The translations under genes were made by a program, and so were the position numbers. The notes beneath the pieces are model-generated. The model saw only the letters and a list, made by a program, of their open reading frames with translations, was not told where the DNA came from and made no database searches. 64,000 nt of DNA from Isurus oxyrinchus (taxonomy: Eukaryota), in the NCBI GenBank assembly GCA_026770705.1, contig JANJGN010000071.1:186001-250000 (forward strand), in the 5' to 3' direction. Of this stretch, positions 2,173-48,678 are shown piece by piece; position 1 is the stretch's first letter; every line of letters begins with the position of its first letter.

Positions 2173-2903
2173 TAAAGAACATTGTACAAATTGCACAAAA
2201 TTTCATCTGATGCCTGTGTCTCATGCTAACATGAAGTTCATGCACACAACAGGAATATTTCTCGCTGTTTCTCTGCAGCAAGACAGCTTTGGTATCACAC
2301 CACCCACTGGCAAGAGTGTGCAGTTACAATGTGACATGTTTACATTGGAAATTTCTATTATAAAGATGGACAGAGGAATTCATCTGATTGGAAAACGTGA
2401 CAACAGGAAGCTATGTCTTTGAGCCAAGTATTTTGCAGCAAAACAAGAATTTTAATCTTTAAATATCTACAGAACAGGCTGAGCATTTTAATCACTTGAG
2501 TTAATCAAAGTAATTTTATTCATAAGCCAAATGCTTCTTACAATCTATCGCAGCATGAAAAAGGTGCAGCATTCAGAAAGCACATTCCAATCAGAGAACA
2601 GAGTTTAGCAACGTCACATTTCTGTTCATTCCTATTCGATGAACAATTTCAAAAGGAAATTGGACGGAAATTGGAAATAAATTTGCAGGGATACGGGGAT
2701 AGAGCAGGGGATGGGACTGAGTGGATTGCTTTACAGAGAGACAGCATAGACTCAATGGGCCAAATGTCCTCCTCCATTGCTGGAATGACTCGATGATACG
2801 GAGATGATTATAACCAGGACACTGACCAGTTTCATTACAACTTAACACAACATCACACGTTATTTGTCCGCACTGACTGACCAGATTGTTGCTGTACAAA
2901 GCT

Positions 2904-3043
2904 TCAAACAGTCTGTCGACTTCCTTTCACTGTTTGTCTCTCCCAGACACAGACTCCAGTGATAGTGATAACCACAGCCACAAGGAATATCACAGCTCGT
3001 ATTCCCAGGATCAGGATCACGTGCAGAATCTCTCCTCCACTGT
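2904..3043 (-). CDS. Gene C terminal exon: Arg-containing TM with short tail (activating type)
   Basis: Polypyrimidine-TAG acceptor, phase 1. (D)SGGEILHVILILGIRAVIFLVAVVITITGVCVWERQTVKGSRQTV*. No Tyr in the tail. Confidence 0.8.
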
Positions 3044-4164
3044 CTAGAGAACACACAGAAAGAAATCATCACTGACTCTCCACTTTCAATCTCTCACTCT
3101 GGCTGAACAATCAAACTTCATATCACTGCAACATTTGCTGTAATATTGACCCATCCACTGGGATTCAATGTGGAATGAATGTTTTCATTGTAAACACTCT
3201 AAGAGTGGACAATCGGAACTTTCCCCTTAGCGTGGAACATTGGTGAGAATGGATCATTGTGCTGTTGGACTCCCTGTCCAATGTTTCTCTCTATTGCTGT
3301 GTACAGGATTGTGCTGTAGAAAATTCTGGAAACGTTTAGTGCCGGGTGAAAATCCATCTCGGACGTGTGTGCGAATCGGGCAGGATCGAGATGGACTCCC
3401 CCACGGACTTACACCCCCCGCTTAATAAACAGTTCCAATCTTTACCCAGAGAGAGGGGAGAATGTGGAACTCGCTCCCACAGGGAATGGTTGAGGTGAAT
3501 AGTAGGAAATTAGGAAGTGAAATTGCTTGAAAAGCTTGGAGATGCAAGGGTTAAGTGTGACCGTGCCACCACTGGTGGGAGAGTGTAACTACAGCGTGAC
3601 GTTTACATAGGCAATCCCCATTATGAACAAGGACATTGGACATCATGTGAAAAATGGGCACTGGAAAGCTGAGAACTTGATGTAAGCTTTTCACCAACAG
3701 GAATTCCCTTCCTAAACCTCTCCACTTTCCTCTTACTCTCAAATACTCAAACAAAATTTCACACAAAATCACGTAAGGAGGAATTGGGACAGGTGACTGG
3801 TCAAAGAGTTAGATTTCAGGAAGGTTCTTAAAGGAGGATAGAGAGTTGGAGAGGCAGAGAGTGTCTGTGAGTAACTCTGTGCATCTGAGTGTCTGTAATA
3901 GACTTTGCAATTTCCATATTCTTCCATAAATATGAAAGGGAACACAAATCCCAGAATCCAGGTCAACTCACCGGTGCAGCACTGAGGGAGGTCAGGTAAT
4001 CCACAGGGGAGTATGTGCTAGTGTGTTTGTTTGTGAGTGTGTCTTTGTGTGTGCTCATAGATGTGAGATTGTGTGTCTGCAGGTGTCGATATAAGGCTGT
4101 ATATTTATGTGTGTTGTTGTAGTGTTTCAATCTGAGAGAGATGTTGAAGTTTGTCTTAACTAAC

Positions 4165-4315
4165 GTTCCACAGTGATGGTTATGAACCCCTCCACTGCTC
4201 CATGTTCATTCACTGAGCACACTGATAGTCTCCAGTGTCCCTGGATGTAACGTGAGGAATCACCAACCACAGCTCATTGTTGGAACTTGTTCTGTTCATT
4301 TAATATTCAGATGTC
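4165..4315 (-). pseudogene. Gene C truncated C2 exon remnant
   Basis: Only the 3' half of the 282-nt exon remains, with a 1-nt deletion near 4212. The 5' half is replaced by unrelated sequence. The homologous upstream intron resumes at about 4500. Confidence 0.8.
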
Positions 4316-4638
4316 AGGACCGGACTCAACAAGACAGATTGCAGGTTTACCAACAGAAAGTGAACAACAATTTATATTCAAAGGGAAGAGAGTGCTGGTT
4401 AATCAGCAAGTGGTCACTGATTGGAGGAGGTGTTGCCATGGAAAATAATGTGTGTGAAATGTAAAGTTTAGACAGCTTGTCTCTTCATTCAGCAACAATC
4501 AAATAAAGATCAGTTAACTTCTATCGACTGTGAAGCACTTTGAGAGGCATGAGAATGTGGACACTGAGAACGGGCTGCACTGTCAGAGGGTCAGCGCTGA
4601 GGGAGTGCTGATGTAGAATGAAGGGTGTCCGTACTTAC

Positions 4639-4935
4639 CTTGCACAGTTAGTACGAGGGTCCGCTCCGATGAAACAGATGGATATCTCACTCTGCAGCTG
4701 AGAGTGTGTCCGTGGTGTTTGAGTGATGGGATCAGGGTCAGAACAGAAGTATAGGTCAGAGTGACACCATGCTGAGTTACAGTGTTTGAGACTGATCCAC
4801 GTACGTCAGTGGGAGTGTCCCAGGTTAAGACAGGTGCTGCTGTTCCATTGCACGTTGTGTTGAAGGTGCAGCTTACATCCACACGCTTTCCTGCAATAAT
4901 TTCAGCAGGGAATATTGTGGGTTTATCTGTGAAAT
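4639..4935 (-). CDS. Gene C second Ig exon (open, but within a probable pseudogene)
   Basis: 297 nt, AG/GTAAGT, open. Confidence 0.8.
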
Positions 4936-5663
4936 CTAACAGACAGAGAATGGATCCTTTTAGAGAAATATAACGTGAAGCATCAGTTCAAATAGAAATC
5001 ACAGTCCCACAAGAAAAAGCACTTTTACAAGGATGATATCAGATCTAACAGATTACAATGATCAGGAGAGAATTTCCTGCTTTGAGACTTTGGTATTTCT
5101 GTCTCTCAGCTTAATACACGTTCACTCCGAGACACTTGAACTGATAATAGTGGGTGAGGGTGAAGGAGCAGACCAGAGTTTGGAGTGCACTACCCCATCA
5201 TTCACTCAGCAATCTGGGCCATTTATTACTTTGCAATTTGTGGGAGCTTGCTGTGCACAAATTGGCTGCTGTGTTTCTCACATTACAACAGTAACTACAA
5301 TTCAGGAATCAGCTCATTGGCTGTGAAGTGATTTCGTCCGTGGTGAGGTGGTGAAAGGTGCTACAGAAATGTGAATCTTTCTTCTGTCGATATGTCAGAC
5401 TTCAAGACAGGATTAGAGAGATCGATGGGAGTGGATAACCTGATAACATTGATGGACACAGTCAATACATTTAATCATTGTCATTAAAGTGAGTATTAGA
5501 GGTTGCTTTAGGACTGAACTGGAAGCTATCACCAGGTTATTGAGAATCAGACAGTGTGTTATAATAAGCTGTGTTTTGTGTTAATATGTAAACGTCACAG
5601 ATTGTGTTATTTCCCATTGAGTGTTGGATGTGAATTGATGAGTAATTATAACACAGCACTTAC

Positions 5664-6032
5664 CAGAAACGTGAAGCTGGGTTACAGGGTAATAGTTATG
5701 GCTCAGACCATTGTCAAATTCTATTCTGAAAAAATAAGGTCCTGCATCTTCCCGTCTGATGTTGTTTATAATCAGGGAACAGTCGCCATGTTTCAGGTCT
5801 CCAGACAGCCGGGTCCGATTGTGGAAACGTGGTAACTCATGACTGTGATCCTTGGAGTGAAAGGCAATGGGAGCCCAGGGAATCTGTTCCTCATTATTAA
5901 ACCAGACTCCACCTCGCGGTTGGTTTTCCAGACACGATGGATAACTGTAATGACATGGAATCTGTACACACGAACCTTCCTGCGCTGTCACCTCTCATGG
6001 AGTGTCACCTTTCCACTCTTGTGACAGTCCAA
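5664..6032 (-). pseudogene. Gene C V exon with premature stop (CGA to TGA)
   Basis: 369 nt. GDTP*EVTAQ with TGA at 5995-5997 where paralogues have CGA. Otherwise open and close to the gene B V exon. Confidence 0.85.
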
Positions 6033-6139
6033 CTGGGGAGAGAAATATCAATATTTAACTCTGAATGTTTTCTCAATCCACTAGACTCAATATCCACCCC
6101 CTCCATCACTGGATGGTTTGTGGATCCACTAGACTCAAA

Positions 6140-6920
6140 ATTTACAGATGAGGCTGAATTGGGGGGATGGTCAATACTGAGGAGAATGGCAACAAATTAT
6201 ATTGGCAGGAAGAATAGAAAAACAGAATATTATTTAAATGGAGACAGGCTGCAGAATGCAGTACAGAGGGATCTGGGTGTCCTTGTACATGAATCACAGA
6301 AAGTCAGCATTCAGGAACACCACGGAATGAGGAAGGCAAGTGGAATGTTGGCCTTTATTGCAAACGGATGGAGTAGAAAAAGGAGGGAAGTCTTGCAACA
6401 GCTGCACAGGGTGAGATTCTATCAGGAGCAGTGTGTACAAGCAGTTCAGAGAAGCTTCACTGGGCTGATTCCTGGGATTAAAGGGTTTGTCCTGTGAGGA
6501 AATGTTGAGCAGGTTGGGCCTGTATCCATTGGAGTTTAGAAGAATGAGGAGTGACCTTATTGAAACATATCCGATTCCGAGGGGGCTTGACAGGGTGGAT
6601 GCTGGGAGGATGTTTCCCCCTCGTGGGGGAATCTAGAACCAGGGAGCACAGTTTCGAAATGAGGGCTCTCCCATTTAAGACTGAGATGAGGAGGAATTTC
6701 CTCTCTCAGAGGGGCGCTAGCCTGTGGAATTCTCTTCCCCAGAGAGCAGTGGAGGCTGGGCCATTGAATAGACTCAAGGCTGAGTGAGGCAGGTTTTTGA
6801 TCGACAAGGGAGTCAAGGGTTTGGGGGACAGGCAGGAAAATGGAGTTAAGGCCACAACCAGATCAGTGAGAGCAGGCTCGAGGGGCCGAATGGCCTGCTC
6901 CTGTTCCTATTTCTTATGAT
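6140..6920 (+). mobile_element. CR1-type LINE fragment
   Basis: YYLNGDRLQ...QRDLGVLVHES; RRNFLSQR...WNSLPQRAV; 3' tail. Confidence 0.8.
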
Positions 6921-9676: not shown

Positions 9677-10054
9677 CAGAAACGTGAAGCTGGGTTACAG
9701 GGTAATAGTTATGGCTCGGACCATTGTCAAAATCTATTCTGAAAATATAAGTTCCTGCATCTTCCCGTCTGATGTTGTTTATAATCAGGGAACAGTCGCC
9801 ATCTTTCAGGTCTCCAGACAGTCGGGTCCGATGGTGGAACTGTGGTAACTCGTGACTGTGATCCTTGGAGTGAAAGGCTACAGACCTTTTAGAATATTTG
9901 TTCCGTATGTACCTTCTCATATACCAGATTCCGACATGTCATTTCTTTGCCAAATCTGATGGATAACTGTAATGACATGGAATCTGTACACACGAACCTT
10001 CCTGTGCTGTCAACGCTCGTGGAGTGTCACCTTTCCACTCTTGTGACAGTCCAA
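9677..10054 (-). pseudogene. Divergent Siglec-like V exon with in-frame stop
   Basis: 378 nt, intact splice sites. ...YSYPSDLAKK*HVGIWYMRRYIRNKYSKRSVAFH...YIFRID. TGA at 9939-9941. Confidence 0.82.
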
Positions 10055-15344: not shown

Positions 15345-15384
15345 CTTGGAGAAGTGACAGGAGGAAGTAAGATTTCCCGATCAT
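15345..15384 (-). CDS. Gene C signal-peptide exon (MIGKSYFLLSLLQ)
   Basis: Same coding sequence as leader 43346-43385. Flanks about 14540-15640 are homologous to the gene B repeat unit. Confidence 0.75.
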
Positions 15385-25500: not shown

Positions 25501-26666
25501 CCCTGTGACATGACATGGCAGATGATGTGTGCTTGGTGCTCCAAATCCACAAGGGAAAATTGGTCACGCTATCACAATAGTTTTGTAATTTGTATTTATT
25601 ACAAGAAGCGTGCACTGAATTCAGGAGTAATGAGTTGACCACAACCTTTAGAGATTTTAAAAATTGGATTAAGATATTTATTAACAAAATAAAAGATTTC
25701 AAGCACAGACATAATACCACGGTTAGTTACAGCTAAAATAAATTCTCAAATTCCTAATTAACCTGACTCCCAGTTACAGAGCCCGTTTAAGGCAACAGTC
25801 CAAAATAAGATTTTAGATTAAAAACAAGCCCAGCGAGTTAACACAGCACACACTTGACACTGGAAATCTAAACGGGTTTCTCCAACTTTATTTACTGAAC
25901 ATAACAGACTTATGCACAAATGCCTGGAGGCTTCTTCAAGCCTGTTTCACACACTCCTGTTAGATCTTACATGGCCCCCAACATAGCCTTTCATTCTCCT
26001 TTATACATGTTTCTCTCTCTTTGATGTGTAAATTCTTTGGAACTGTACCTTTCCCATAATATAAACTTTCATGTTGCCAATATTGTCAATGAAGTTTGGG
26101 TAAAATTAAAAAAAAACTCCTTAGCTTTGCTTATTGGGCTTGTCCTAAACAGACCAACATCCCTTTGAAATCTAAACAACCCCTTCACACCTTACATGCT
26201 AACACAGCCTCCATGTGTTCTCATTAGCATTTCAAGTACATTTCTACATCTAGCTTCTTTTGATAATCTCAAGCTTGAAGTCTACCTGACTCCAGATGTA
26301 ATTAAACTACACAGACAGACCCATCTACACTCACACCCATAAACCTTGTTTACAACAAACCAGGAAAATATTAAGCAAATTATTATACTTTCGCACCACC
26401 CCTGATTCCCATTGACTCCAGTTATGCTCGGGATCCTAGAGGCCACACTCGGTCAAATGCAGCCTTGATGTCAAAGGCAGTCACTCTCACCTCACCATAC
26501 ATAATTCATAAGCTTCTCGCCATCTTTTACAGCATGGAAAAAGGTGCAGCATTCAGAAAGCTCACTCAGAACCAATAAAAAAAGTTCAGCAACATCATAT
26601 TTCTGTTCATTACTATTTGGCCATGTTGGCTGCACACACCCCACAGCCCCGCTCCCTGTTTCACAC

Positions 26667-26915
26667 TCAGTTTTTCTGGAACCTGATCTGTGCGTATTCC
26701 GTGTCCTCGCTCCTGTGCACAGTCCTGTCACCGCTGGACAGCTTTGAAAAGTTGATGTTGGCGTAGAAAAGCTCGTCGGGTTTGTCGGGGTTCCCATGTC
26801 CAACATCGCCTCCCACTGGACCTTCAGAGAGACCCCGGGGAGCTGAGGTCTCACCCTCACTAGTTGTGTCTCTGGTTGTGTTCCAGGGCTCAGTAATCAG
26901 CAAGTTCTGTTTACC
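26667..26915 (-). CDS. Gene B terminal exon with ITIM (LFYANI) and ITSM-type motif (TEYAQI)
   Basis: TAG acceptor, 249 nt to TGA. ELFYANINF...DTEYAQIRF matches the motif pair of CD33-related Siglec tails. Confidence 0.9.
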   Translation of the reverse strand, partial: GKQNLLITEPWNTTRDTTSEGETSAPRGLSEGPVGGDVGHGNPDKPDELFYANINFSKLSSGDRTVHRSEDTEYAQIRFQKN

Positions 26916-27832
26916 CTACAGAGAAATGGAAACAGAAGACATCCTCACATCATTTACTGGCACTGATAGGGTTAAGTTATTCTGCAGCCTCGTTACTGTC
27001 AGTCGTGTCTCAATGGGTTTAACCCTCTTTTTCACTCTCTTTCTCTGTCTCCTTTTTTTCAATCTCTTTCTCTGTCTCTCTTTCTCTCTCTCTCTTTTGC
27101 TTTCTCTCTCTATTTATTATTTAATCTCTCTCGCTATCGCAGACCTGAGTCTTGAAGTCCTATGTTACCATCCCAATCATGAGATTTGTGCCCCATTATT
27201 CACAAACACAGACACACAAAGAACCTCACGCCAATGAAGGAATTTTATTGAAGGGCGACACTGCTACAGTGTTGGAAATGTGGCCGTGGGACCAGATAAG
27301 ATGGTAAACATGGTCAGCATTATACAACTATTCTGAAAGAGGCACCTCGAACACTGCAATGTTCTCTCAGTGCTCTCTGCTGACAGTGCAGCACTCCCTC
27401 GGAACTGCCCCTTCAAGAGGGCAGCAGCCCTTGAAAATGGACTCTTTGACAGTGCAGCACTCACTCAGTACTGTCCTCAGAACTGACCATCCGACAGTGC
27501 AGCACTCCCTCAGTACTGACCCTATGACAGCGCAGCACTGCCTCAGTACTGACCCTCTGACACTCCAGCACTCCCTCAGCACAGACCCTAGGACAGTGCA
27601 ACACTCCCTCAGTACTGACATCAGGTGCCTTGTCATTTTTGTGTTCAGGTTTCTGGTCAAAGAGCGAGTGATGGAGGGAGAGAGGGGGAGGGAGCGAGAG
27701 ACAGTGCTACCTACTGAGCCATATCTGACTCCACAGGTAGATATCTGTGGGTAACTTGGCTGGGAATCTGGGACATGTGTTGTCTACACACTGAGATAGA
27801 AGCTTTGGAGTGAGTGTAAACAGTTCCTGTAC

Positions 27833-27914
27833 CTGGTGCTTCACAAAGAGGGACCTGAGGGTCAATGCAATGTAATTGGTCCCTGAACCTCTCTCCTCCA
27901 TCGCTGTCTTTCTC
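27833..27914 (-). CDS. Gene B cytoplasmic exon 1 (TNYIAL)
   Basis: 82 nt, phase 2-0. RKTAMEERGSGTNYIALTLRSLFVKHQ. Confidence 0.82.
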
Positions 27915-28061
27915 CTGCAATAACACAATATCACACTGTGGTTATCATATAGCAGAGAGTCAGTGCAGCACAGACACAGAGCCCAGTGTAACCTTACAGC
28001 AACGGCTGGACTGTCTCTAGTTCCAATAAGGGGTATCAGCGTGACATCACTATAATGGAAG

Positions 28062-28280
28062 TGTGACATGTGATCCAATCTTAGTTTGACATTTGCTTTG
28101 AGCAGAGCACACACTCACAGCTCTGATGCCTTCAATCTTTATCCGTATGTATAACTGTTCTCGTGCCGAGTCTTGATTAACGAGCCCATAACATTCTCAC
28201 CCAATCCCTGTGAGCGATTGGTGCTTTGTGTCTTGTACAATAAATAAGCCTAAGGTATAATATCATTATAATGACACGCC
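28062..28280 (+). mobile_element. Probable solo LTR related to 11980-12171
   Basis: Shared blocks (GAGCAGA.CACA..CTCACA, CTGTTCTC, ACCCAATCC, TATCATTATAA). Confidence 0.4.
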
Positions 28281-28790
28281 ATATCTTTGACCCGCCCTCC
28301 ACCCCTGCTCTTCCCCCCATAGCCCTTCAAATGTTCCCCCTTCAAGTATTTATCCAATTCCCCTTTTGAAAGATCCTATTGAATCTGCTTCCACCGCCCT
28401 TTCAGGCAGCACCTTCCAGATCACAGCAACTGATTATTATTCATCTGGATAACGGGCAATGAAAAACACTCTCTGGATCATAATGGATAAAGAGATCAGT
28501 TAGGGAGTGGCATCTGGCGCTTAACACAAGGGAAACAATCACCGACTTCAGGAAAGAACATTGAAGCAAATATTTATCCAGGAGTAATCGTGCAGAGTGA
28601 GGAATCTCTGGGTCTCGTGATTGTTTACTGGATACAGGACAATGAAAGGTTCTCTCCGGATCAGAGTGGACACAGGGATCACTTACAGAGAGGGACCTGG
28701 TGCTGATCCCAAGGGAAATAATCACCGACTTAAGGAAAGAACATTGAAGCAAATGTTTATATTAAAATCAAGTTAAATCTTCAGACTTAC

Positions 28791-28887
28791 TTTCTCACAC
28801 AGATGAAGATGAAGATTCCAGCCAGGAAAACACTCAACATGAGCCCAGCCGTGAACAATCCTACTGTCCATTTACTGGAGTCTCTAC
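28791..28887 (-). CDS. Gene B transmembrane exon (uncharged)
   Basis: 97 nt, CAG/GTAAGT. (C)RDSSKWTVGLFTAGLMLSVFLAGIFIFICVR(K). Confidence 0.9.
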
Positions 28888-29695
28888 CTGTAAAAACAGC
28901 CATTAATTACTGCACTACAGGTTTACAATGATGCTCCGATGTATCTCGAGAAGCGATACACTCACTCAGTGTTTAAATACTCATTCTCGGGCAATGCTGA
29001 CATTTATTGTCCATCCCTAGTTTCCCCTTGAGAAGGTGGTGGGGGGTCTTCCTCCTGAACCACTGGTTTGTCCCAAACTGGGAGACCAGTTCAGAGGGCA
29101 GGTGTGAGTTAACCATGTTGGTGTCTGAGACTGGAGTCACATCCACATCGAGACATGCTTCCCTCCCTAAAGGGTATGTAGTCTCTACACATGTAACAAC
29201 CAACCTCACTGAAATAATCGACTATCAGGTCATTATCACACGGTGGTTTGCGGGATCTTGCTGTGCACAAATCAGTACCTGTGTTTCCTACATTACAACA
29301 GTGAGCTCACTTCGATAATGCTTCATTGGCTGTTAAATGTTTAGTCATTTCTAAGCAATTTATGAATACAATAGTTGCATTTCAAAGTAATTCATGTAAC
29401 ATTTATATATAATATTTATCAATTAAAGAATGAGAAGTTCAGCAATTAAAAGGGTTGTTCAGGACAGTTAGAGAGAGAAAGGTCTTCAAGTACGGAGATT
29501 GGAAACGAAGACCTGACAGCCTTGTCCTCACAACCATTGAAGGAGAAACTGAGAGCAAAAACAGAAAGGGAGAGGAAAAATTGGATGTGTGGATAACGTG
29601 GACTGAGCGAGGATTGAAGAAAACTGGATTAAAAACAACACGATCCCAATGGCTCCACGGAGACAACAAACAAACAAATGTATCTCCACACTCAC

Positions 29696-29977
29696 ATTCC
29701 ACAGTGATGGTTATGAATCCCTCCACTGCTCCATGTTCATTCTCTGCCACACACTGATAGTCTCCAGTGTCCCTGGATGTAACGTGAGGAATCACCAACC
29801 ACAGCTCATTGTTGGAACTTGTTCTGTTCATTGGGACATTAAGATGTCGCCACGTCAGGTTAGAAGCTGGGAAGCTCTCGACAGAGCAGATTATCACTGC
29901 AGAATTCCCCTCAATTATATTGATCGATGAAGCGTTAATCATACCAAGTGAAGTAATTGAGACATCCTGTGGTGCAT
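29696..29977 (-). CDS. Gene B repeated C2 Ig exon 5 (membrane-proximal)
   Basis: 282 nt, TAG/GTGAGT, open. Confidence 0.88.
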
Positions 29978-30743
29978 CTAAAAACATAGAAAGATTTTAA
30001 TGTGAGCAAATATGGTGCACAGCAAGACTCCATGCATCATCTCTCTGTATCTGATGTCTGAATGCATTTCCAGGTAACTTCCCTCACGATAAGGTCTTAT
30101 GGCACATTTATAATTGACACTGCCTATGTAAACTGTCACACTGCAGTTGCATTCTCCCACCAGTAGAGGTGTTGTCCATCTAGAATGAAAGAAGCTTGCT
30201 TTCACATCCTCAGGATTTCGCAAAGGGCTGGACAGGCAATGATTGTTTTTGATTGATGGAGCACTTAGGGATAAATCTACAATTCTCTGTTCAGGCGGTT
30301 GCTCATCCAACTCAGGGTCTTGTTCATCTGGAGTTTACCTTCCTTCAACACAGAATTGGAGCTGACACCGAGATTCCAGTGCAGCCCTGAGAGAGGACAC
30401 GGAACTCACATGTGTGTATGTGTGTATGTGTGTGTTTGTGTTTCTGCACAGGTGAGTGTGCTTGTGTCTGTATGCACACATGTAGCTGTGTGTGTGCATG
30501 CGCGTGTGTCTGTGTGTCTACGTCTGTCCATGAGTGAGAGTATGTGCATGTGTGTGTCTATGTGTGGGCATGAATATGTGTGTGTTTGAGATGGGTGTGT
30601 ATTTTCCTGTGTATGTGTTTGTACGTGTATGACTGTCTGTGAATACTTATGCATGTGTATGCTTACACATGTGTGTGTGTGTGTGTATGTGTCTGTGTGT
30701 GTGTGTGTGTGTCTGAGTGATGTTGAAGTTTGCATTAACTCAC

Positions 30744-31025
30744 GTTCCACAGTGATGGTTATGAACCCCTCCACTGCTCCATGTTCATTCTCTGCCACAC
30801 ACTGATAGTCTCCAGTGTCCCTGGATGTAACGTGAGGAATCACCAACCACAGCTCATTGTTGGAACTTGTTCTGTTCATTGGGACATTAAGATGTCGCCA
30901 CGTCAGGTTAGAAGCTGGGGAGCTCTCGACAGAGCAGATTATCACTGCAGAATTCCCCTCAATTACATTGATCGATGAAGCGTTAATCATATCAAGAGAA
31001 GTAATTGATAGGTTCCGTGGTGCAT
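30744..31025 (-). CDS. Gene B repeated C2 Ig exon 4
   Basis: 282 nt, TAG/GTGAGT, open. Confidence 0.88.
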
Positions 31026-31551
31026 CTAAATACAAATAAAGGTTTCATTGTGAGCAAACACAGTGCACAGCAAGACTCCATGATACATCTCTCTCTATTT
31101 GGTGTCTATGTGCATTTCAAGGTTTCTTTCCTGTTTTAAGTTCCTATGTCAACTTTTATAATGGTCACTGCCAGCAGTTTTCTTTTTGTACATTCATGGG
31201 AAGTGGATGTATCTATCTAGACCAGCATTTATTACCCATCCCTAATAACCCTTGAGGAGGTGGTGGTGAGTTTTTCACCTCCAGAGGATTCCCAGCCTCT
31301 GACCGGCTCCTGTAGCCACAGTATTTATGGCCGGTCCAGTTAGGTGTTTGGTTAACATCCCCCAGGATATTGATTGTGGGGGATTCAGTGATAGTAAACT
31401 CACTGAACATCAAGGAGAGATGGTTAGATTCTCTCTTGTTGGAGATGATCACTGCCTGGTACTTGTGATGCATTAATTGTCTCAGCCCAAGCTGAGTGTT
31501 GTTGAGCTCTTGCTGCATGTGGATATGTAAACTGTCACGCTGTAATTACAG

Positions 31552-33826
31552 AGATAAAAACAAAAAATCTGCGGATGCTGGAAATCCATAACAAAATCAA
31601 AAACAGAATTACCTGGAAAAACTCAGCAGGTCTGGCAGCATCGGCGGAGAAGAAAAGAGTTGACGTTTCGAGTCCTCTTGACCCTTCGACAGAACTTGAG
31701 TTCGAGTCCAAGAAAGAGTTGAAATATAAGCTGGTTTAAGGTGTGTGTGGGGGGGCGGAGAGAGAGAGAGAGAGAGGGGTGGAGTGGGGGTGTGGTTGTA
31801 GGGACAAACAAGCAGTGATAGAAGCAGATCATCAAAAGATGTCAACAACAATAGAACAAAAGAACACAGAGGTGTTGAAGTTGGAGATATTATCTAAACA
31901 AATGTTCTAATTAAGAATGGATGTTAGGGCACTCAAGGTATAGCTCTAGTGGGGGTGGGGAGAGCATAAAAGATTTTAAGATATTTAAAAATAATGGAAA
32001 TAGGTAGGAAAAGAAAAATCTATATAATTTATTGGAAAAAAAAGGAAGGGGGAAACAGAAAGGGGGTGGGGATGGGGGAGGGAGCTCACGACCTAAAGTT
32101 GTTGAATTCAGTATTCAGTCCGGAAGGCTGTAAAGTGCCTAGTCGGAAGATGAGGTGCTGTTCCTCCAGTTTGCGTTGGGCTTCACTGGAACAATGCAGC
32201 AGGCCAAGGACAGACATGTGGGCAAGAGAGCAGGGTGGAGTGTTAAAATGGCAAGCGACAGGGAGGTTTGGGTCATTCTTGCGGACAGACCGCAGGTGTT
32301 CTGCAAAGCGGTCGCCCAGTTTACGTTTGGTCTCTCCAATGTAGAGGAGACCACATTGGGAGCAACGAATGCAGTAGACTAAGTTGGGGGAAATGCAAGT
32401 GAAATGCTGCTTCACTTGAAAGGAGTGTTTGGGCCCTTGGACGGTGAGGAGAGAGGAAGTGAAGGGGCAGGTGTTACATCTTTTGCGTGGGCATGGGGTG
32501 GTGCCATAGGAGGGGGTTGAGGAGTAGGGGGTGATGGAGGAGTGGACCAGGGTGTCCCGGGGGGAGCGATCCCTACGGAATGCCGATAAGGGGGGTGAAG
32601 GGAAGATGTGCTTGGTGGTGGCATCATGCTGGAGTTGGCGGAAATGGCGGAGGATGATCCTTTGAATACGGAGGCTGGTGGGGTGATAAGTGAGGACAAG
32701 GGGGACCCTATCATGTTTCTGGGAGGGAGGAGAAGGCGTGAGGGCGGATGTGCGGGAGATGGGCCGGACACGGTTGAGGGCCCTGTCAATGACCGTGGGT
32801 GGAAAACCTCGGTTAAGGAAGAAGGAGGACATGTCAGAGGAACCGTTTTTGAAGGTGGCATCATCGGTGGCGAAGGAACCCTCTACTCCTCAACCCCCTC
32901 CTATGGCACCACCCCATGCCCACGTAAAAAATGCAACACCTGCCCCTTCAGTTCCTCTCTCCTCACCGTCCAAGGGCCCAAACACTCCTTTCAAGTGAAG
33001 CAGCATTTCACTTGCATTTCCCCCAACTTAGTCTACTGTATTCGTTGCTCCCAATGTGGTCTCCTCTACATTGGAGAGACCAAAGGCTGACTGGGCGACC
33101 GCTTTGCAGAACACCTGCGGTCTGTCCGCAAGAATGACCCAAACCTCCCTGTCGCTTGCCATTTTAACACCCCACCCTGCTCTCGTGCCCACATGTCTGT
33201 CCTTGGCTTGCTGCATTGTTCCAGTGAAGCCCAACGCAAACTGGAGGAACAACATCTCATCTTCCTTCTAGGCACTTTACAGCCTTCCGGACTGAATATT
33301 GAGTTCAACAACTTTAGGTTGTGAGCTCCCTCCCCCATCCCCACCCCCTTTCTGTTACCCCCCTCCTTTTTTTTCCAATAAATTATATAGATTTTTCTTT
33401 TCCCACCTGTTTCCATTATCTTCAAATATCTTAAAATCTTTTATGCTCTCCCCACCCCCACTAGAGCTATACCTTGAGTGCCCTAACATCCATTCTTAAT
33501 CAGAACATTCGTTTAGATAATATCACCAACTTCAACACCTCTGTGTTCTTTTGTTCTGTTGTTGTTGACATCTTTTGATGATCTGCTTCTATCACTGCTT
33601 GTTTGTCCCTACAACCACACCAACCCCCTCCACTTCTCTCTCTCTCTCTCTCTCCGCCCCACCCCCCCCCCCAACACACCTTAAACCAGCTTATATTTCA
33701 ACTCTTTCTTGGACTCGAACTCAAGTTCTGTCGAAGGGTCAAGAGGACTCGAAACATCAACTCTTTTCTTCTCCGCCGATTCTGCCAGACCTGCTGAGTT
33801 TTTCCAGGTAATTCTGTTTTTGTTTT
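31552..33826. mobile_element. Penelope-like retroelement, 5'-truncated inverted (palindromic) structure with GIY-YIG endonuclease
   Basis: Minus ORF 32086-32832 contains NLVYCIRCSQCGLLYIGETKRKLGDRFAEH. Inverted copy at about 32880-33826 has an in-frame stop (GETKG*). 15-bp TSD with one mismatch at 31537-31551 and 33827-33841. Confidence 0.88.
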
Positions 33827-34410
33827 ACGCTGTACTTACAGCCTTCCACCAGAGGAGACACTGTTGTGCTAGAAGAAAAGAAAATGTCTTTCACATCATC
33901 AGGATGTTTATGGAGATTTGACAGTGGAGGAATTGCTTTAGAATAATGGGGTATTGAGTGATAAACCTACAATTCTCTGTGTAGGGGGCTGCTCGTCCAA
34001 TACAGGGTCTTGTTCAGCTGATGTCGTCAGTGTTTCAGAGCAGAATCTGGAGCAACACTCCAGTGCAGCACAGGGAGAACAGACAACTCACACATGTCTG
34101 TGTGTGTGTGTGAGCAAGCACACGTGTGATTCTGTGTATGTTTCCTTCTGTATGTGTGCATGCAGGCGTACACACCTGAGCACATGTGGGATTCAACATG
34201 AATGCTTGTTTGTGTGCACANNNNNNNNNNNNNNNNNNNNNNNNNNNNNNNNNNNNNNNNNNNNNNNNNNNNNNNNNNNNNNNNNNNNNNNNNNNNNNNN
34301 NNNNNNNNNNNNNNNNNNNNNNNNNNNNNNNNNNNNNNNNNNNNNNNNNNNNNNNNNNNNNNNNNNNNNNNNNNNNNNNNNNNNNNNNNNNNNNNNNNNN
34401 NGTAACTCAC

Positions 34411-34692
34411 GTTCCACAGTGATGGTTATGAACCCCTCCACTGCTCCATGTTCATTCTCTGCCACACACTGATAGTCTCCAGTGTCCCTGGATGTAACGT
34501 GAGGAATCACCAACCACAGCTCATTGTTGGAACTTGTTCTGTTCATTGGGACATTAAGATGTCGCCATGTCAGGTTAGAAGCTGGGAAGCTCTTGACAGA
34601 GCAGATTATCACTGCAGAATTCCCCTCAATTATATTGATGCATGAAGAATTATTCATATCAAGAGAAGTAATTGAGAGACTCTGTGGTCCAT
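34411..34692 (-). pseudogene. Gene B repeated C2 Ig exon 3, acceptor mutated (AG to GG), probably skipped
   Basis: Open 282-nt frame with intact donor. Plus strand reads CATCCAAAAAC at the acceptor where sibling exons read CATCTAAAAAC. Confidence 0.7.
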
Positions 34693-35517
34693 CCAAAAAC
34701 ATATAAAGATTTCAATGTGAGCAAGCACAGTGCACAGCAAGACTCCATGCATCATGTCTCTCTGTATCTGATGTCTGAATGCATTTCCAGGTACCTTCCC
34801 TCAGGATAAGAACTTATTTTACATTTACAATGGGCACTGCCTATGTAAACTGTCACACTGCAGTTACATTCTCCCACCAGTGGAGGTGTCTATCTAGAAT
34901 GCAGGAAACTCCCTTTCAGATCCTCAGGATGTCCCCAAAGGCTTCAAAGGCAATGAATTGTATTTGATCAATGGAGCACTGAGGGGTAAATCTACAATTC
35001 ACTGTTCAGGAGGTTGCTCCATCCAGTTCAGGGTCTTGATAATCTGGAGTTTACCTTTCATCAACAAAGAATAGGAGCTGATACTGAGGCTCCAGTGCAG
35101 CACTGAGAGAGGAGAGGGAACCCACACGATTTTGTGTGTGAATGTGTGTGTTGGCTTGTGTGTGTGTATGTTTCTGCACAATAAGGATCTGTGTGTGTGC
35201 ACGCACTCATGTGTGTTTGTGTGTGTGCGCATGTGTGTCTGTCTGTTCATGTGTGTGTGTGTAAGTTAAGGTTGTATGTGNNNNNNNNNNNNNNNNNNNN
35301 NNNNNNNNNNNNNNNNNNNNNNNNNNNNNNNNNNNNNNNNNNNNNNNNNNNNNNNNNNNNNNNNNNNNNNNNNNNNNNNNNNNNNNNNNNNNNNNNNNNN
35401 NNNNNNNNNNNNNNNNNNNNNNNNNNNNNNNNNNNNNNNNNNNNNNNNNNNNNNNNNNNNNNNNNNNNNNNNNNNNNNNNNNNNNNNNNNNNNNNNNNNN
35501 NNNNNNNAGTAACTCAC

Positions 35518-35799
35518 ATTCCACAGTGATGGATATGAACCCCTCCACTGCTCCATGTTCATTCTCTGCCACACACTGATAGTCTCCAGTGTCCCTGGAT
35601 GTAACGTGAGGAAACACCAACCACAGCTCATTGTTGGAACTTGTTCTGTTCATTGGGACATTAAGATGTCGCCACGTCAGGTTAGAAGCTGGGAAGCTCT
35701 CGACAGAGCAGATTATCACTGCAGAATTCCCCTCAATTATATTGATCGATGAAGCGTTAATCATATCAAGAGAAGTAATTGAGAGATTCTGTGGTGCAT
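35518..35799 (-). CDS. Gene B repeated C2 Ig exon 2
   Basis: 282 nt, TAG/GTGAGT, open. Confidence 0.88.
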
Positions 35800-36442
35800 C
35801 TAAAAACATATAAAGATTTTAAAGTGAGCAAGCACAGTGCACAGCAAGACTCCATGCATCATGTCTCTGTATCTGATGTCTGAATGCATTTCCAGGTACA
35901 TTCCCTCAGGATAAGAACTTATTTCACATTTACAACGGGCACTGCCTATGTAAACTGTCACACTGCAGTTACATTCTCCCACCAGTGGAGGTGTCCATCT
36001 AGAATGCAGGAAACTCCCTTTCAGATCCTCAGGATGTCCCCAAGGGCTTCAAAGGCAATGAATTGTATTTGACCAATGGAGCACCGAGGGGTAAATCTAC
36101 AATTCACTGTTCAGGAGGTTTCTCCATCCAGTTCAGTGTCTTGATGATCTGGAGTTTACCTTCCTTCAACACAGATTCGGACCTGATACTGAGACTCCAG
36201 TGCAGCACTGGGAGAGGAGTGGGAACCCACATGTTTTTGTGTGTGTATGTGTGTGTTGGCTTGTGTGTGTGTATGTTTCTGCACAATAAGGATCTGTGNN
36301 NNNNNNNNNNNNNNNNNNNNNNNNNNNNNNNNNNNNNNNNNNNNNNNNNNNNNNNNNNNNNNNNNNNNNNNNNNNNNNNNNNNNNNNNNNNNNNNNNNNN
36401 NNNNNNNNNNNNNNNNNNNNNNNNNNNNNNNNNNTAACTCAC

Positions 36443-36724
36443 ATTCCACAGTGATGGTTATGAATCCCTCCGCTGCTCCATGTTCATTCTCTGCCACACA
36501 CTGATAGTCTCCAGTGTCCCTGGATGTAACGTGAGGAATCACCAACCACAGCTCATTGTTGGAACTTGTTCTGTTCATTGGGACATTAAGATGTCGCCAC
36601 ATCAGGTTAGAAGCTGGGAAGCTCTTGACAGAGCAGATTATCACTGCAGAATTCCCCTCAATTATATTGATCGATGAAGCATTAATCATATCAAGACAAG
36701 TAATTGAGAGATTCTGTGGTGCTT
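36443..36724 (-). CDS. Gene B repeated C2 Ig exon 1
   Basis: 282 nt, TAG/GTGAGT, phase 1-1. EAPQNLSITC...IICSVKSFPASN...DTGDYQCVAENEHG. Confidence 0.88.
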
Positions 36725-36856
36725 CTAAAAACAAATAAAAATCAGTTAACTTACATTGACTTTGAAGCACTTTGAGAGACACTGAGAATGTGAAAGGTGT
36801 GATATCAATGTCGGTTCCTTCACCACAAAGCACGTAATCCAGGCACACACTTCAGT

Positions 36857-39272: not shown

Positions 39273-39569
39273 CTTGCACAGTCAGTACGAGGGTCCGCTC
39301 CGATGAAACAGATGGATATCTCACTCTGCAGCTGAGAGTGTGTCCGTGGTGTTTGCGTGATGGGATCAGGGTCAGAACAGAAGTATAGGTCAGAGTGACA
39401 CCATGCTGAGTTACAGTGTTTGAGACTGATCCAGGTACGTCAGTGGGAGTGTCCCAGGTTAAGACAGGTGCTGCTGTTCCATTGCACGTTGTGTTGAAGG
39501 TGCAGCTTACATCCACACGCTTTCCTGCAATAATTTCAGCAGGGAATATCGTGGGTTTATCTGTGAAAT
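39273..39569 (-). CDS. Gene B second Ig (C2-set) exon
   Basis: 297 nt, open, near-identical to 60861-61157 and 4639-4935. Confidence 0.9.
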
Positions 39570-39969: not shown

Positions 39970-40338
39970 CAGAAACGTGAAGCTGGGTTACAGGGTAATA
40001 GTTATGGCTCGGACCATTGTCAAATTCTATTCTGAAAAAATAAGGTCCTGCATCTTCCCGTCTGATGTTGTTTATAATCAGGGAACAGTCGCCATCTTTC
40101 AGGTCTCCAGACAGCCGGGTCCGATGGTGGAACCGTGGTAACTTGTGTCTGTGATCCTTGGAGTGAAAGGCAATGGGAGCCCAGGGAATCTCTTTCTCGT
40201 TATTAAACCAGACTCCACCTCGCGGTTGGTTTTCAAATTTTGCTGGATAACTGTAATGACATGGAATCTGTACACAGGAACCTTCCTGCGCTGACACCTC
40301 TCGTGGAGTGTCACCTTTCCACTCTTGTGACAGTCCAA
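39970..40338 (-). CDS. Gene B Siglec-like V-set exon
   Basis: 369 nt, open, AG/GTAAGT. EGSCVQIPCHY, GDCSL, YFFRIE. Confidence 0.92.
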
Positions 40339-42160: not shown

Positions 42161-43345
42161 GTGGATTATTTCTGATCCAAACCCCATATTGTTGTATTGT
42201 TGATTCCGATGCAGCATTGTAGACTGACTTGTCCCCAAGCTCAGCACTGACCCTACTCCAGCAGACACTGTGAAACACACTAACAAAGGGCCTCTAGCCT
42301 GAGCTCTGCATGTGTCGGAGGTGCCGCTGTGGTGGGTTCATGACTTTCAAAGATGACGTTGTTTATTTGTTCAAACTGAACTGGGTCCCATATGAAACGC
42401 TGATACCAGAAACCTCTTGTTAACTGTCCTTCTGAAATATCCATGATTCAGCAGGATTCTGAAGATTTGCTGATAAGGATCTAAAATTCTCTGATTGTTG
42501 AATGATACAGCACAGGAGGAGCTCATTTGACCCATCGTGCATGTGCTGGCTCTTTCCCAATTCCTCTCCAGCACCTTTCACACATCCCTGCAAATTTCCC
42601 TTCAAGTATTTATCCAGTTCCCCTTCTGAAAGTTCCTGTCGAATCTGCTTCCACCGCCCTTTCAGGCAGTGAGTCAATGGTCTCTCTCTGAGCTGCAAAG
42701 TGCCCAGATTCTGTGAAATTTGAACTCTGCAGCAGATCAGAGACAATCATGATAACTCAGAATATTTGACAGTTTTACACACAGACAGCTTTGCCTCCCT
42801 TCTCTCTTTCAGTTATCTTGCTCCCTTATCAAAGTTTCTGGCATGGTGTGAATGGACAGGAAGTGTGACACTGAACAGCCTGTCTATTCTAGGAGCTGCT
42901 GTGTTGTCTTCATGGGAAATTCTGACCAAAATCAGCAAAAGACACAAATTTCAGGATATTGCTATCAGAATCCTAGCACCTGGATAGATTTCATCCCCCA
43001 GGTTCGTTCCCTGATTTTCTGCTCAACACATCACTCCCCATCTATCACTGACCAACAGCCGACATCACCTGAAGTTTAAGATTCTGCTCTAGCTGCTACA
43101 ATCCTGCCTAATTGTGTAACCGTCTCCAGCCCCTACAACGCTCTGAGATCTCTATTCTTCTCCAATTCTGCTGTCAGACAGGGAGTCAGTGTATATCAGT
43201 GAGCACAGGGGTGATGGGTGAATGGGACTTGGTGTGAGTTTGTACACTGGCTCACTGCTGAATTAGTTCCCAATCACAGCTCAATAAGAATGATCTTTAC
43301 AAAGACCCTTTACCATAAATCTGTCCAAGCTGACGATGATATTAC

Positions 43346-43385
43346 CTTGGAGAAGTGACAGGAGGAAGTAAGATTTCCCGATCAT
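43346..43385 (-). CDS. Gene B signal-peptide exon, copy 1, proximal (MIGKSYFLLSLLQ)
   Basis: Joins the V exon as MIGKSYFLLSLLQ|VGLSQEW. Upstream polypyrimidine-CAG acceptor starts the exon at 43427. Confidence 0.82.
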
Positions 43386-43835
43386 TGTCTACTCCCAGAT
43401 ATTACATTCACTTCTCACTCTCAAACTCTGAAAGAGAAAGGAGTTAATGAGACCTCACCTCTTGTCCGACAGCTCTCGAGGGATCAGAACTGCTTTTAGA
43501 CAATGTCTTCACAGACAAATTTGATTCACGGTGGGATGATAGGTGCTCTGCAGAGAGTTACAAGGCTTTAAGGAAGAAAAACAATGAAGGATTTGCATTA
43601 GTATAGCACCTTTCACCACCTCAGGGCATCCAAAATCTCATGTCACTCCACTTCCCTCATCCCTTGAGCTAGAAAGATGTTCTGTACAACAGACTTGAGC
43701 CTCACACCCAGATCTCAATAATCAGTAGAAATCTTTCAAAGGCATCAATCATTGGAATCTGTCTTTATAAAGTCACAACATCAACAAAGTACGGTGTTGG
43801 CGGTGGAAGTGAATTCCAATCGTTCCGTTACTTAC

Positions 43836-43980
43836 CCAGGACCTGTCCGACTGCTCGCCTGGGGAGGAACTGCCCACACGCTCTGCTTGGGCTGAATGAC
43901 CTCTTCCTGTGCTGCTCCCTCTGTGTATTTAATTAGAAAGAGCTGATGTGTCTCTGTGAGACAAAATGAGGAAGTTGGAA
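43836..43980 (-). promoter_or_regulatory. Putative promoter and non-coding exon 1 of gene B (repeated at about 45598, 47362, 49124)
   Basis: CCTGG|GTAAGT donor at 43836. PU.1/ETS-like AAAATGAGGAAGT at 43963-43975 (AAAAGAGGAAGT at 45724 and 49250). No transcript evidence. Confidence 0.5.
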
Positions 43981-45112
43981 CAAAGTGAGTGAACAGCACT
44001 TAGCTGTGCACTGTTAGCAAACCCTGTGTCTGTATAAGAATATAAGAACAGAACAAGTAGGATCAGCTGGACACCCTGACATTTTCATTCCTTACATGCC
44101 AGCCACTCATTTTTTTATCCACTCACTGAAACTATTTATCTGCCTCTGCAGCCTCTTTGTGTCCTCCTCACAACTTGCTTTCCTGCACAGCTTATATATT
44201 TCCTACCTATCTTCACCATACAGTCAGAAAATCTGTCTACAGTACAGTCAGTCCCTTCATCCAAGTTACTAATGTAGATTGTGAATAGTTGATGCTTTGA
44301 AATATCTGTCTAATTATTCCCACGCTCAGCTCTGCTCTCTCCTCCAAAGCCCTGCAAAATTTGCCCTTCAAGTATTTATCCAGTTCCCCTTCTGAAAGTT
44401 CCTGTTGAATCTGCTTCCACCGCCCTTTCAGGCAGTGAGTCAATGGTCTCTCTCTGAGCTGCAAAGTGCTCAGATTCTGTGAAATTTAAACTCTGCAGCA
44501 GATCAGAGACGCTCATGATAACTCAGAATATTTGACAGTTTTACACACAGACAGCTTTACCTTCCTTCTCTCTTTCAGTTATCTTGCTCCCTTATTGAAG
44601 TATCTAGCAAGGTGAGAATGGACAGGAAGTGTGACACTGAACAGCCTGTCTATTCTAGGAGCTGCTGTGTTGTCTTCATGGGAAATTCTGGTTAAAATCA
44701 GCAATAGACACAGAATTACAGCGCATTGTTATCCGTGTCCTAGCATCAGGATAGCTGTCATCCCCCTGTTTTTTTCCCTGATTTTCTGCTCAACCCATCA
44801 CTCCCCATCTATCACTGACCAACAGCCGACCTCACCTGAAGTTTAAGATTCTGCTCTAGCTGCTACAATCCTGCCTAATTGTGTAACCGTCTCCAGCCCC
44901 TACAACGCTCTGAGATCTCTATTCTTCTCCAATTCTGCTGTCAGACAGGGAGTCAGTGTATATCAGTGAGCACAGGGGTGATGGGTGAATGGGACTTGGT
45001 ATGAGTTTGTACACTGGCTCACTGCTGAATCGGTTCCCAATCAGAGATCAATAAGAATGATCTTTACAAAGACCCTTTACCATAAATCTGTCCAAGCTGA
45101 CGATGATATTAC

Positions 45113-45152
45113 CTTGGAGAAGTGACAGGATGAAGTAAGATTTCCTGATCAT
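45113..45152 (-). CDS. Gene B signal-peptide exon, copy 2 (MIRKSYFILSLLQ)
   Basis: Same structure, 40 nt, intact donor. Confidence 0.7.
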
Positions 45153-46871
45153 TGTCCACTCTCAGATATTCCATTCACTTCTCACTCTCAAACTCTGAAA
45201 GAGAAAGAATTTAATGAGTCCTCACCTCTTGTCCGACAGCTCTTGCAAGATCAGAACTCCTTTTAGACAATGTCTTCACTGACTAATTTGATTCACGGTG
45301 GGATGATAGGTGCTCTGCAGAGAGTTACAAGGCTTTAAGGAAGAAAAACAATGAAGGATTTGCATTTGTATAGCACCTTTCACCACCTCAGGGCATCCAA
45401 AATCTCGTCACTCCACTTCCCTCATCCCTTGAGCTAGAAAGATGTGCAGTACAGCAGACTTGAGCCTCACACCAGATCTCAATAAACAGTAGAAATCTTT
45501 CAAAGGCATCAATCATTGGAATCTGTCTTTATAAAGTCAACATCAACAAAGGACGGTGTTGGTCGTGGAAGTGAATTCCAATCGTTCCGTTACTTACCCA
45601 GGACCTGTCCGACTGCTCGCCTGGGGAGGAACTGCCCACACGCTCTGCTTGGGCTGAATGACCTCTTCCTGTGCTGCTCCCTCTGTGTATTTAATTAGAA
45701 AGGGTTGATGTGTCTGTGTGTTTAAAAGAGGAAGTTGGAACAAAGTGAGTGAACCGCACTTTGCTGTGCACTGTCAGTACACCCTGTGTCTGTATAAGAA
45801 TATAAGAACAGAACAAATAGGATCAGCTGGACACCCTGACATTTTCATTCCTTACATGCCAACCACTCATTTTTTTATCCACTCACTGAAACTATTTATC
45901 TTCCTCTGCAGCCTCTTTGTGTCCTCCTCACAACCAGCTTTCCAGCACAGCTTATATATTTCCTACCTATCTTCACCATACAGTCAGAAAATCTGCCGAC
46001 AGTACAGTCAGTCCCTTCATCCAAGTCACTAATGTAGATTGTGAATAGTTGAGGCTTTGAAATATCTGTCTAATTAGTCCCACGCTCAGCTCTACTCTCT
46101 CCTTCAAAGCCCTGCAAATTGTCCCCTTCAAGTATTTATCCAGTTCCCCTTCTGAAAGTTCCTGTTGAATCTGCTTCCACCGCTCTTTCAGGCAGTGAGT
46201 CAATGGTCTCTCTCTGAGCTGCAAAGTGCTCAGATTCTGTGAAATTTAAACTCTGCAGCAGATCAGAGACACTCATGATAACTCAGAATATTTGACAGTT
46301 TTACACACAGACAGCTTTGCCTCCCTTCTCTCTTTCAGTTATCTTGCTCCCTTATTGAAGTTTCTAGCAAGGTGAGAATGGACAGGAAGTGTGACACTGA
46401 ACAGCCTGTCTATTCTAGGAGCTGCTGTGTTGTCTTCATGGGAAATTCTGGTTAAAATCAGCAAAAGACACAAATTTCAGGTTTTTGCTATCAGAGTCCT
46501 AGTACCTGGATAGATTTCATCCCCCAGGTTCTTTCCCTGATTTTCTGCTCAACCCATCACTCCCCATCTATCACTGACCAACACTCGACATCACCTGAAG
46601 TTTAAGATTCTGCTCTAGCTGCTACAATCCTGCCTAATTGTGTAACCGTCTCCAGCCCCTACAACCCTCTGAGATCTCTATTCTCCTCCAATTCTGCTGT
46701 CAGACAGGGAGTCAGTGTATATCAGTGAGCACAGGGGTGATGGGTGAATGGGACTTGATATGAGTTTGTACACTGGCTCACTGCTGAATCGGTTCCCAAT
46801 CAGAGATCAATAAGAATGATCTTTACAAAGACCCTTTACCATAAATCTGTCCAAGCTGACGATGATATTAC

Positions 46872-46911
46872 CTTGGAGAAGTGACAGGAGGAAGTAAGAT
46901 TTCCCGATCAT
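46872..46911 (-). CDS. Gene B signal-peptide exon, copy 3 (MIGKSYFLLSLLQ)
   Basis: Same structure, 40 nt, intact donor. Confidence 0.7.
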
Positions 46912-48638: not shown

Positions 48639-48678
48639 CTTGGAGAAGTGACAGGATGAAGTAAGATTTCCTGATCAT
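48639..48678 (-). CDS. Gene B signal-peptide exon, copy 4 (MIRKSYFILSLLQ)
   Basis: ATG...CAAG|GTAATA, 40 nt, phase 1, in frame with the V exon. Confidence 0.7.

Follow-up and report, generated by a model that had tools for sequence, protein, structure and literature searches.

The closest described systems to the gene cluster analysed here are the primate paired Siglecs SIGLEC5/14 and SIGLEC11/16, in which, according to the available text of PMC5701461, a Siglec V plus C2 head sits on one of two kinds of end, a short tail behind a charged anchor or a tyrosine-motif tail. Null activating copies are described in the available parts of PMC6288428 and PMC4042635, SIGLEC14-null being a fusion deletion; heads are exchanged, in primates even from the non-functional donor SIGLEC16P, and SIGLEC11/16 are 97-99% identical over a V-containing tract (available text of PMC5701461). 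Excerpts of two further sources report that some primates have only 4-5 CD33-related Siglec genes (PMC4384638), and that teleost genomes are without inhibitory CD33-related Siglecs (PMC7226832). Siglecs receive a single passing mention in a paper on the whale shark genome, and full-text searches of openly accessible papers found none on a shark Siglec expansion; shark genome supplements may list this expansion.

Expanded clusters of paired Ig receptors include chicken CHIR, teleost NITR and KIR/LILR. Like the shark cluster, these arrays combine activating with inhibitory genes, hold many pseudogenes and evolve by birth and death, but, unlike the shark cluster, they do not encode Siglec-type lectins. 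Human SIGLEC12 has two V-set domains. Siglecs share a Cys pattern, to which the CxxxPC motif contributes two Cys, strand E one and the next domain a spare Cys, with the disulfide pairing that goes with it.

The window is a 64,000-nucleotide stretch of the Isurus oxyrinchus assembly GCA_026770705.1 (contig JANJGN010000071.1, positions 186,001 to 250,000), in which genes A, B and C lie on the minus strand. We hold it highly probable that gene C represents a shark Siglec-like receptor, likely activating, in a broken copy, and that its cluster, which comprises hundreds of near-identical genes, is likely shaped by duplication, loss and the exchange of domains, and does not evolve as one-to-one pairs. 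A first-pass annotation of this DNA had invoked SIGLEC14 and SIGLEC16 as models; the analogy holds for the family as a whole, which has tails of opposite sign, heads in common and activating copies that are null, and fails for genes B and C as a specific converting pair. The shark cluster differs from the primate pairs in that a common pool of heads serves its ~229 and ~220 tails, with no one-to-one pair, and in that genes B and C are without a V-centred tract, the null-carrying tract joining two activating-type copies instead; the null of gene C is a nonsense change, unlike the SIGLEC14 deletion. The tandem V exons of gene C resemble those of SIGLEC12, in which, in the available text of PMC6288428, secondary nonsense changes and frameshifts likewise accumulate in a retired gene, although gene C, unlike SIGLEC12, has an activating-type anchor, retains the codon for the essential Arg in V1 as well as V2, and has an extra Cys in its second V exon.

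Gene Anatomy and Siglec Identity

The following exons and features were located, in window coordinates:

15345..15384, minus strand: gene C leader exon, 40 nt (ATG, 13 codons plus 1 nt), intact
9677..10054, minus strand: gene C first V-set exon (V1), in frame, AG/GT borders, one internal TGA (9939-9941)
5664..6032, minus strand: gene C second V-set exon (V2), 369 nt, AG/GT borders, one in-frame TGA
5995..5997, minus strand: V2 stop at exon codon 13, a CpG change of CGA to TGA
4639..4935, minus strand: gene C C2-set exon (C1), 297 nt, intact
approx. 4159..4315, minus strand: half-exon remnant (another Ig exon), with a frameshift in gene C
2904..3043, minus strand: gene C terminal transmembrane (TM) exon, 140 nt, intramembrane Arg in LGIRAVIFL, activating-type
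39970..40338, minus strand: single V exon of gene B, first-position type, without the extra Cys, intact
39273..39569, minus strand: gene B C1 exon
29690..36725 (approximate span), minus strand: five further Ig exons of gene B
26665..28890 (approximate span), minus strand: gene B neutral TM, linker and last exon with LFYANI and TEYAQI
62017..62382, minus strand: gene A V exon, of the other loop type

Genes C and B are linked and carry opposite signalling tails. As had been annotated, gene C is activating-type in its anatomy, with a basic residue (Arg) in the TM segment, a short last-exon tail without Tyr and no ITIM, and gene B is inhibitory-type, with a neutral TM and the tyrosine motifs LFYANI and TEYAQI. 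The 3′ end of gene A has a neutral TM and two tandem tyrosine-motif tails; the linker and tyrosine-motif exons are present there in two tandem copies (window 52780-57600), and the next gene has three.

The best PDB matches of the gene B V domain are Siglec-5 (2e-16), Siglec-7, Siglec-8, CD33, MAG and sialoadhesin, the scores for Siglec-5 and MAG lying within a few orders of magnitude of each other. Pfam assigns this V exon to V-set and Ig_CD22, and C1 to C2-set_2. The Siglec Cys pattern is present, with the Cys positions of gene B V aligning with those of Siglec-5, and YFFRIE of gene B V aligns to YFFRVE of Siglec-5, so that the essential Arg of the F strand, whose role is described in the available text of PMC8198044, is present. 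Gene C V2 is 94.6% identical to this Siglec-homologous V-set, which a C2-set domain follows. The essential Arg codon is kept in V1 and V2 of gene C as in gene B V; V2 retains it in YFFRIE and has an extra Cys in its BC loop (YPSCLE), and in gene C C1 the motif CTFNTTC supplies a second Cys. The 11 database relatives of gene B V in the length range searched all come from sharks and rays. Shark and ray proteins named “CD33-like” or “Siglec-13, -14-like” (P0001-P0010), the names being automatic, have the same leader, V and C1, and the GIRAVIF anchor of the gene C family recurs in P0001, P0002 and P0007.

The reading frame of gene C is not intact. The annotation had called it null, which stands, but through a single inactivating change, which does not: V1 carries its own TGA at 9939-9941, so the stop at 5997 is the second premature stop of the gene, and gene C is null, broken by two nonsense codons, one per V exon. 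The sequence context of the V1 TGA occurs once in the whole assembly, and V1 is open in the checked close relatives of gene C. A repaired product of about 281 aa had been calculated; the arithmetic is correct (40 + 369 + 297 + 140 = 846 nt, or 281 aa plus stop), but this product is probably not the native one. Since V2 is a second-position V with the extra Cys, and intact relatives keep an open V1, the native form is likely a two-V protein of ~407 aa, in which V1 would be joined to V2.

Cluster Size and V Exon Positions

A 25-nt V word has 464 exact copies in the assembly, V-start words number at least 551 (497 + 16 + 19 + 19; see below), and 229 Arg-TM and 220 neutral-TM exons are found at up to one mismatch (reversed-pattern controls, 0), but the assembly may hold both cluster haplotypes on unplaced contigs, and these counts may therefore be up to about twofold too high. 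The cluster contigs, which include G000 C52, C71, C121, C150, C189, C323, C385 and C724, are spread over many megabases. At the V start, short contigs of run X10 reach a depth of ~5,000, against 19-35 for rarer ones, which fits a high copy number in another individual, although depth is not copy number and the figure is not counted as evidence here.

We annotated a sample of 1.2 Mb, comprising C71:166001-872000, which includes the window, and C52:1550001-2040000, with 68 V exons. The extra Cys is present in 28/28 V exons that follow another V, compared with 4/40 first-position exons, a distribution that fits joined V-V domains. Among the downstream V exons, 14 of the 28 start with EPSQ, a linker-like start that never follows a leader, and the other 14 start with VGLSQ. 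Tandem arrays of up to seven or eight V exons at ~2.0-2.3 kb spacing are found at G000:C52:1871384-1886673 and C52:2282428-2296605, the first of which lies within the annotated sample and precedes one C1 and an Arg TM. The essential Arg is absent from 9/31 open first-position V exons and from 0/25 open downstream V exons.

These observations bear on the reading that tandem V exons are used singly, in which case a stop in one V would remove one isoform, and a twin of gene C on C52 (described below) would be functional while the window copy is null. All V exons are of phase 1-1, up to seven of them precede one C1, and the VGLSQ start kept by half of the downstream exons is signal-peptide-like, all of which would suit single use; the EPSQ starts of the other 14 and the near-exclusive placement of the extra Cys in downstream exons speak against it, and we consider single use unlikely. 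The two-V form of gene C is the reading adopted here.

Other elements of the sample include a third TM exon type, at G000:C52:1613881 and six similar sites, which is neutral, ends in a stop and has no adjacent tyrosine tail. Spacers between genes hold repeats of a divergent, truncated Siglec-like V exon with ~34% identity to the main family, one at C52:1825617-1826299 and 13 further full-length copies, among them that at C71:170752.

Closest Relatives of Gene C

A search of the assembly with V2 gave 819 first-look candidates, of which 40 were scored, all being 97-100% identical; the 30 loci fetched from these 40 are all nearer to the gene C V (96.8-100%) than is gene B (94.6%). The best four relatives besides gene C were all checked, and all end in an Arg TM, with CGA at the stop codon position in three. 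At G000:C52:1578694, V2 is identical to that of gene C including the stop and the gene ends in an Arg TM, with a V1 that is different and open. This C52 twin differs from gene C at 14 positions over window 2200-6360, and the resemblance is confined to a block:

approx. 2200..6900: tract shared with G000:C52:1575200-1579900, 99.1-99.9% identical, with the same stop

Outside ~2200-6900, identity to C52 falls to paralogue level (96-98%), the flanks of the C52 twin (98.1%) being no closer than those of other paralogues (98.06%). A block of ~4.7 kb that includes the null is thus common to two activating-type loci, through conversion, unequal crossover or allelic descent. The stop would be older than a copy event and than a second nonsense change.

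The C52 twin could be an allele of gene C. On this basis the stop might be a segregating null of one locus, with C71 and C52 as two haplotypes or close alleles, and with intact forms of gene C carried by other individuals. The left flank of the C52 locus is similar over ~28 kb, and intact V2 exons are only 2 bases away, at C71:631951 and C121:748956, both in genes that end in an Arg TM. These intact copies lie at other positions, however, and one is on the same contig, so that at least that copy is a paralogue. Given also that the flanks match C52 only as well as they match other paralogues, that the V1 exons differ and that the window copy has a second stop, a segregating null appears improbable. 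C71 and C52 as plain haplotypes were considered separately and rejected, gene order not staying collinear.

Head Exchange, Decay and Expression

Activating and inhibitory labels change 10 times on the V tree of 55 labelled exons (shuffled mean 13.3, p 0.017), and V heads are thus largely intermixed, with weak clustering by tail type. A PHI-type test detects recombination within V (p 0.0005), a signal that gapped loops may inflate; because of recombination, single-exon trees, and hence the AU tests given below, are approximate. Exchange of binding domains between members predicted to be activating and members predicted to be inhibitory is likely in this family.

Broken V exons make up 12/68 of the sample, about one in six. 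Among 22 units that end in an Arg TM, nine passed the ORF check, eight have a lesion and five are incomplete. Faster death of activating genes was considered but is not shown by the counts, broken V exons numbering 8/40 against 2/15, and complete genes with a lesion 8/17 against 2/11 (one-sided p ~0.12; lesions in leader, V and C1 were counted, with C2 flags and several C1 exons left out).

Four runs from four studies, guessed to be RNA, were assembled into contigs that drop rare variants and that represent the family, not being assignable to gene C. At that level, the V-C1 joint is present in 4/4 runs, as is the joint from C1 to the Arg TM (3043-4639), in which the half-exon remnant is skipped. 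Among the joints listed, for a stretch that does not extend to V1, none connects one V with another.

The sample also holds seven headless C2-tail units, six with a TM and tyrosine motifs and one without a TM. They lie on the same strand at G000:C52:1831013 and 2030367 and at C71:336299, 535493, 762116 and 860966, and inverted at C52:1676378. For six of the seven, an activating-type head of the same orientation lies 18-27 kb upstream, and these tails may be debris or an alternative inhibitory end; a tblastn search for a hidden V belonging to them found only truncated, opposite-strand divergent V. At loci with headless tails, splicing could join a head either with the Arg anchor or with a tyrosine-motif tail. 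The combined reading, in which hundreds of shark Siglec genes pool their heads across tails and some loci also switch sign by splicing, seems to us quite unlikely. Gene C has no tyrosine-motif tail within 20 kb and would stay dead even if such switching occurred elsewhere.

Genes B and C Are Not a Dedicated Pair

The first-pass annotation had proposed that B and C are a converting pair, that is, a dedicated inhibitory and activating pair with V homogenised by conversion, as in SIGLEC5/14 or SIGLEC11/16. The two genes adjoin, have opposite tails and share three loop motifs absent from gene A, and recombination does occur in the family. Yet 28/67 sampled V exons are nearer to gene C than gene B is, and one ties, placing gene B 29th-30th of 67 in closeness to gene C V2 (20 differences in 369 bases) and gene C 23rd-25th for gene B. 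Gene B has 0/6 of the rare alleles of gene C, gene C has 0/9 of those of gene B, and a clade of gene B, gene C and the gene C twin is rejected (AU test, approximate as noted, p-AU 0.0011). V2 of gene C is moreover of second-position type, and the gene B V of first-position type.

The suggested GENECONV run was replaced by sliding windows, rare-allele sharing, and AU and PHI-type tests. Sliding windows revealed no V-centred tract: from 90% in the upstream flank, B/C identity rises to 94.6% across V, stands at 93-94% in the intron and reaches 98.6% in C1. C1 is thus the more alike of the two exons, opposite to what the available text of PMC5701461 describes for primate SIGLEC11/16, a V-containing tract of 97-99%. 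The value for C1 is family-wide background, gene A and gene C being 98.0% identical there, with a median of 6 mismatches among 40 C1 exons. The longest identical run between B and C, 84 nt, is unremarkable and common to many.

The loops ENQPRGGVW, IPWAPIAF and DNGxSHNY are, as annotated, common to genes B and C and different in gene A, but they are not specific to gene B, since all three exact motifs are present in 13/68 V exons of the 1.2 Mb sample (eight activating-type, four inhibitory-type and one without a tail). The PWAPI loop type is the commonest (31/68 V exons; 16 units with Arg TM, 6 with neutral TM, 5 with the third TM and 4 tailless), and the IPWAP loop is also found in catshark protein P0002. 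At the level of this assembly the dedicated-pair model is already refuted, and we give it very little credence. Where hundreds of closer relatives exist in a genome, neighbours in a window can mimic a converting pair.

Recurrence of the Stop

The annotated change of CGA to TGA at 5995-5997 is real in the assembly: the TGA is present on the minus strand, genes A and B have CGA, and the substitution is a CpG transition. In one 18-nt context, the assembly has 497 copies with CGA at this codon, 16 with TGA, 19 with CAA and 19 with a transversion at the same base (17 GGA and 2 AGA), the GGA copies in the sample being confined to one V clade. The 16 TGA exons are spread over six V types and require at least six changes on a tree of 80 rows (the 68 sampled V exons plus 12 further TGA exons); their monophyly is rejected, with the approximation noted for such trees (AU test, p-AU 5e-9). 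This recurrence fits repeated CpG deamination, perhaps with help from short conversion, and the six TGA “origins” could partly be short conversion tracts. Copy counts alone are no proof of a CpG hotspot, as 19 transversion copies hit the same base.

Among the guessed-RNA runs, the three from organism A read CGA only at 5997, in family-level contigs. Run X15, from organism B, has 3% non-G at 5997, but introns are also covered in this run, and the non-G reads are therefore not taken as TGA transcripts. An assembly or base-calling error has almost no standing as an explanation, and an isolated base-call error is unlikely: the organism-A contigs with CGA only would agree with one, whereas the change is a CpG transition found in 16 copies, and the identical exon on a second contig (G000:C52:1578694) has the same stop and the rare alleles of gene C.

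Discussion

As gene B is not its partner, its nearest relatives are activating-type and its stop is recurrent, gene C counts as an ordinary pseudogene within a cluster that evolves by birth and death. We propose that deamination of a methylated CpG would have created the stop in an ancestor of gene C, that conversion or unequal crossover would then have transferred the ~4.7 kb block with the stop between gene C and the C52 locus, in either direction, and that V1 would next have acquired the second nonsense change. Any gene C message would be lost to nonsense-mediated decay, or would yield a peptide of ~51 aa. Intact Arg-anchor members are predicted to signal via an ITAM adaptor, and tyrosine-motif members to recruit phosphatases. 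Both tail types would draw their V heads from one recombining pool, and the loss of one copy would thus be covered by many others.

The notable thing is the cluster itself, rather than the stop in gene C, which matters little where ~1/6 of sampled V exons are broken and intact near-twins exist. If ~100-230 genes of each signalling type are truly present in the shark, cartilaginous fishes have large paired Siglec-like arrays, and the cluster would offer a natural test of head sharing between activating and inhibitory receptors.

Two further features of gene B were observed in the window. Four tandem leader/promoter units of ~1.76 kb lie at 42586-50031, and an intron holds, at 31593-33826, two inverted copies of a ~950 nt stretch, 95% alike, with a retroelement-like open frame.
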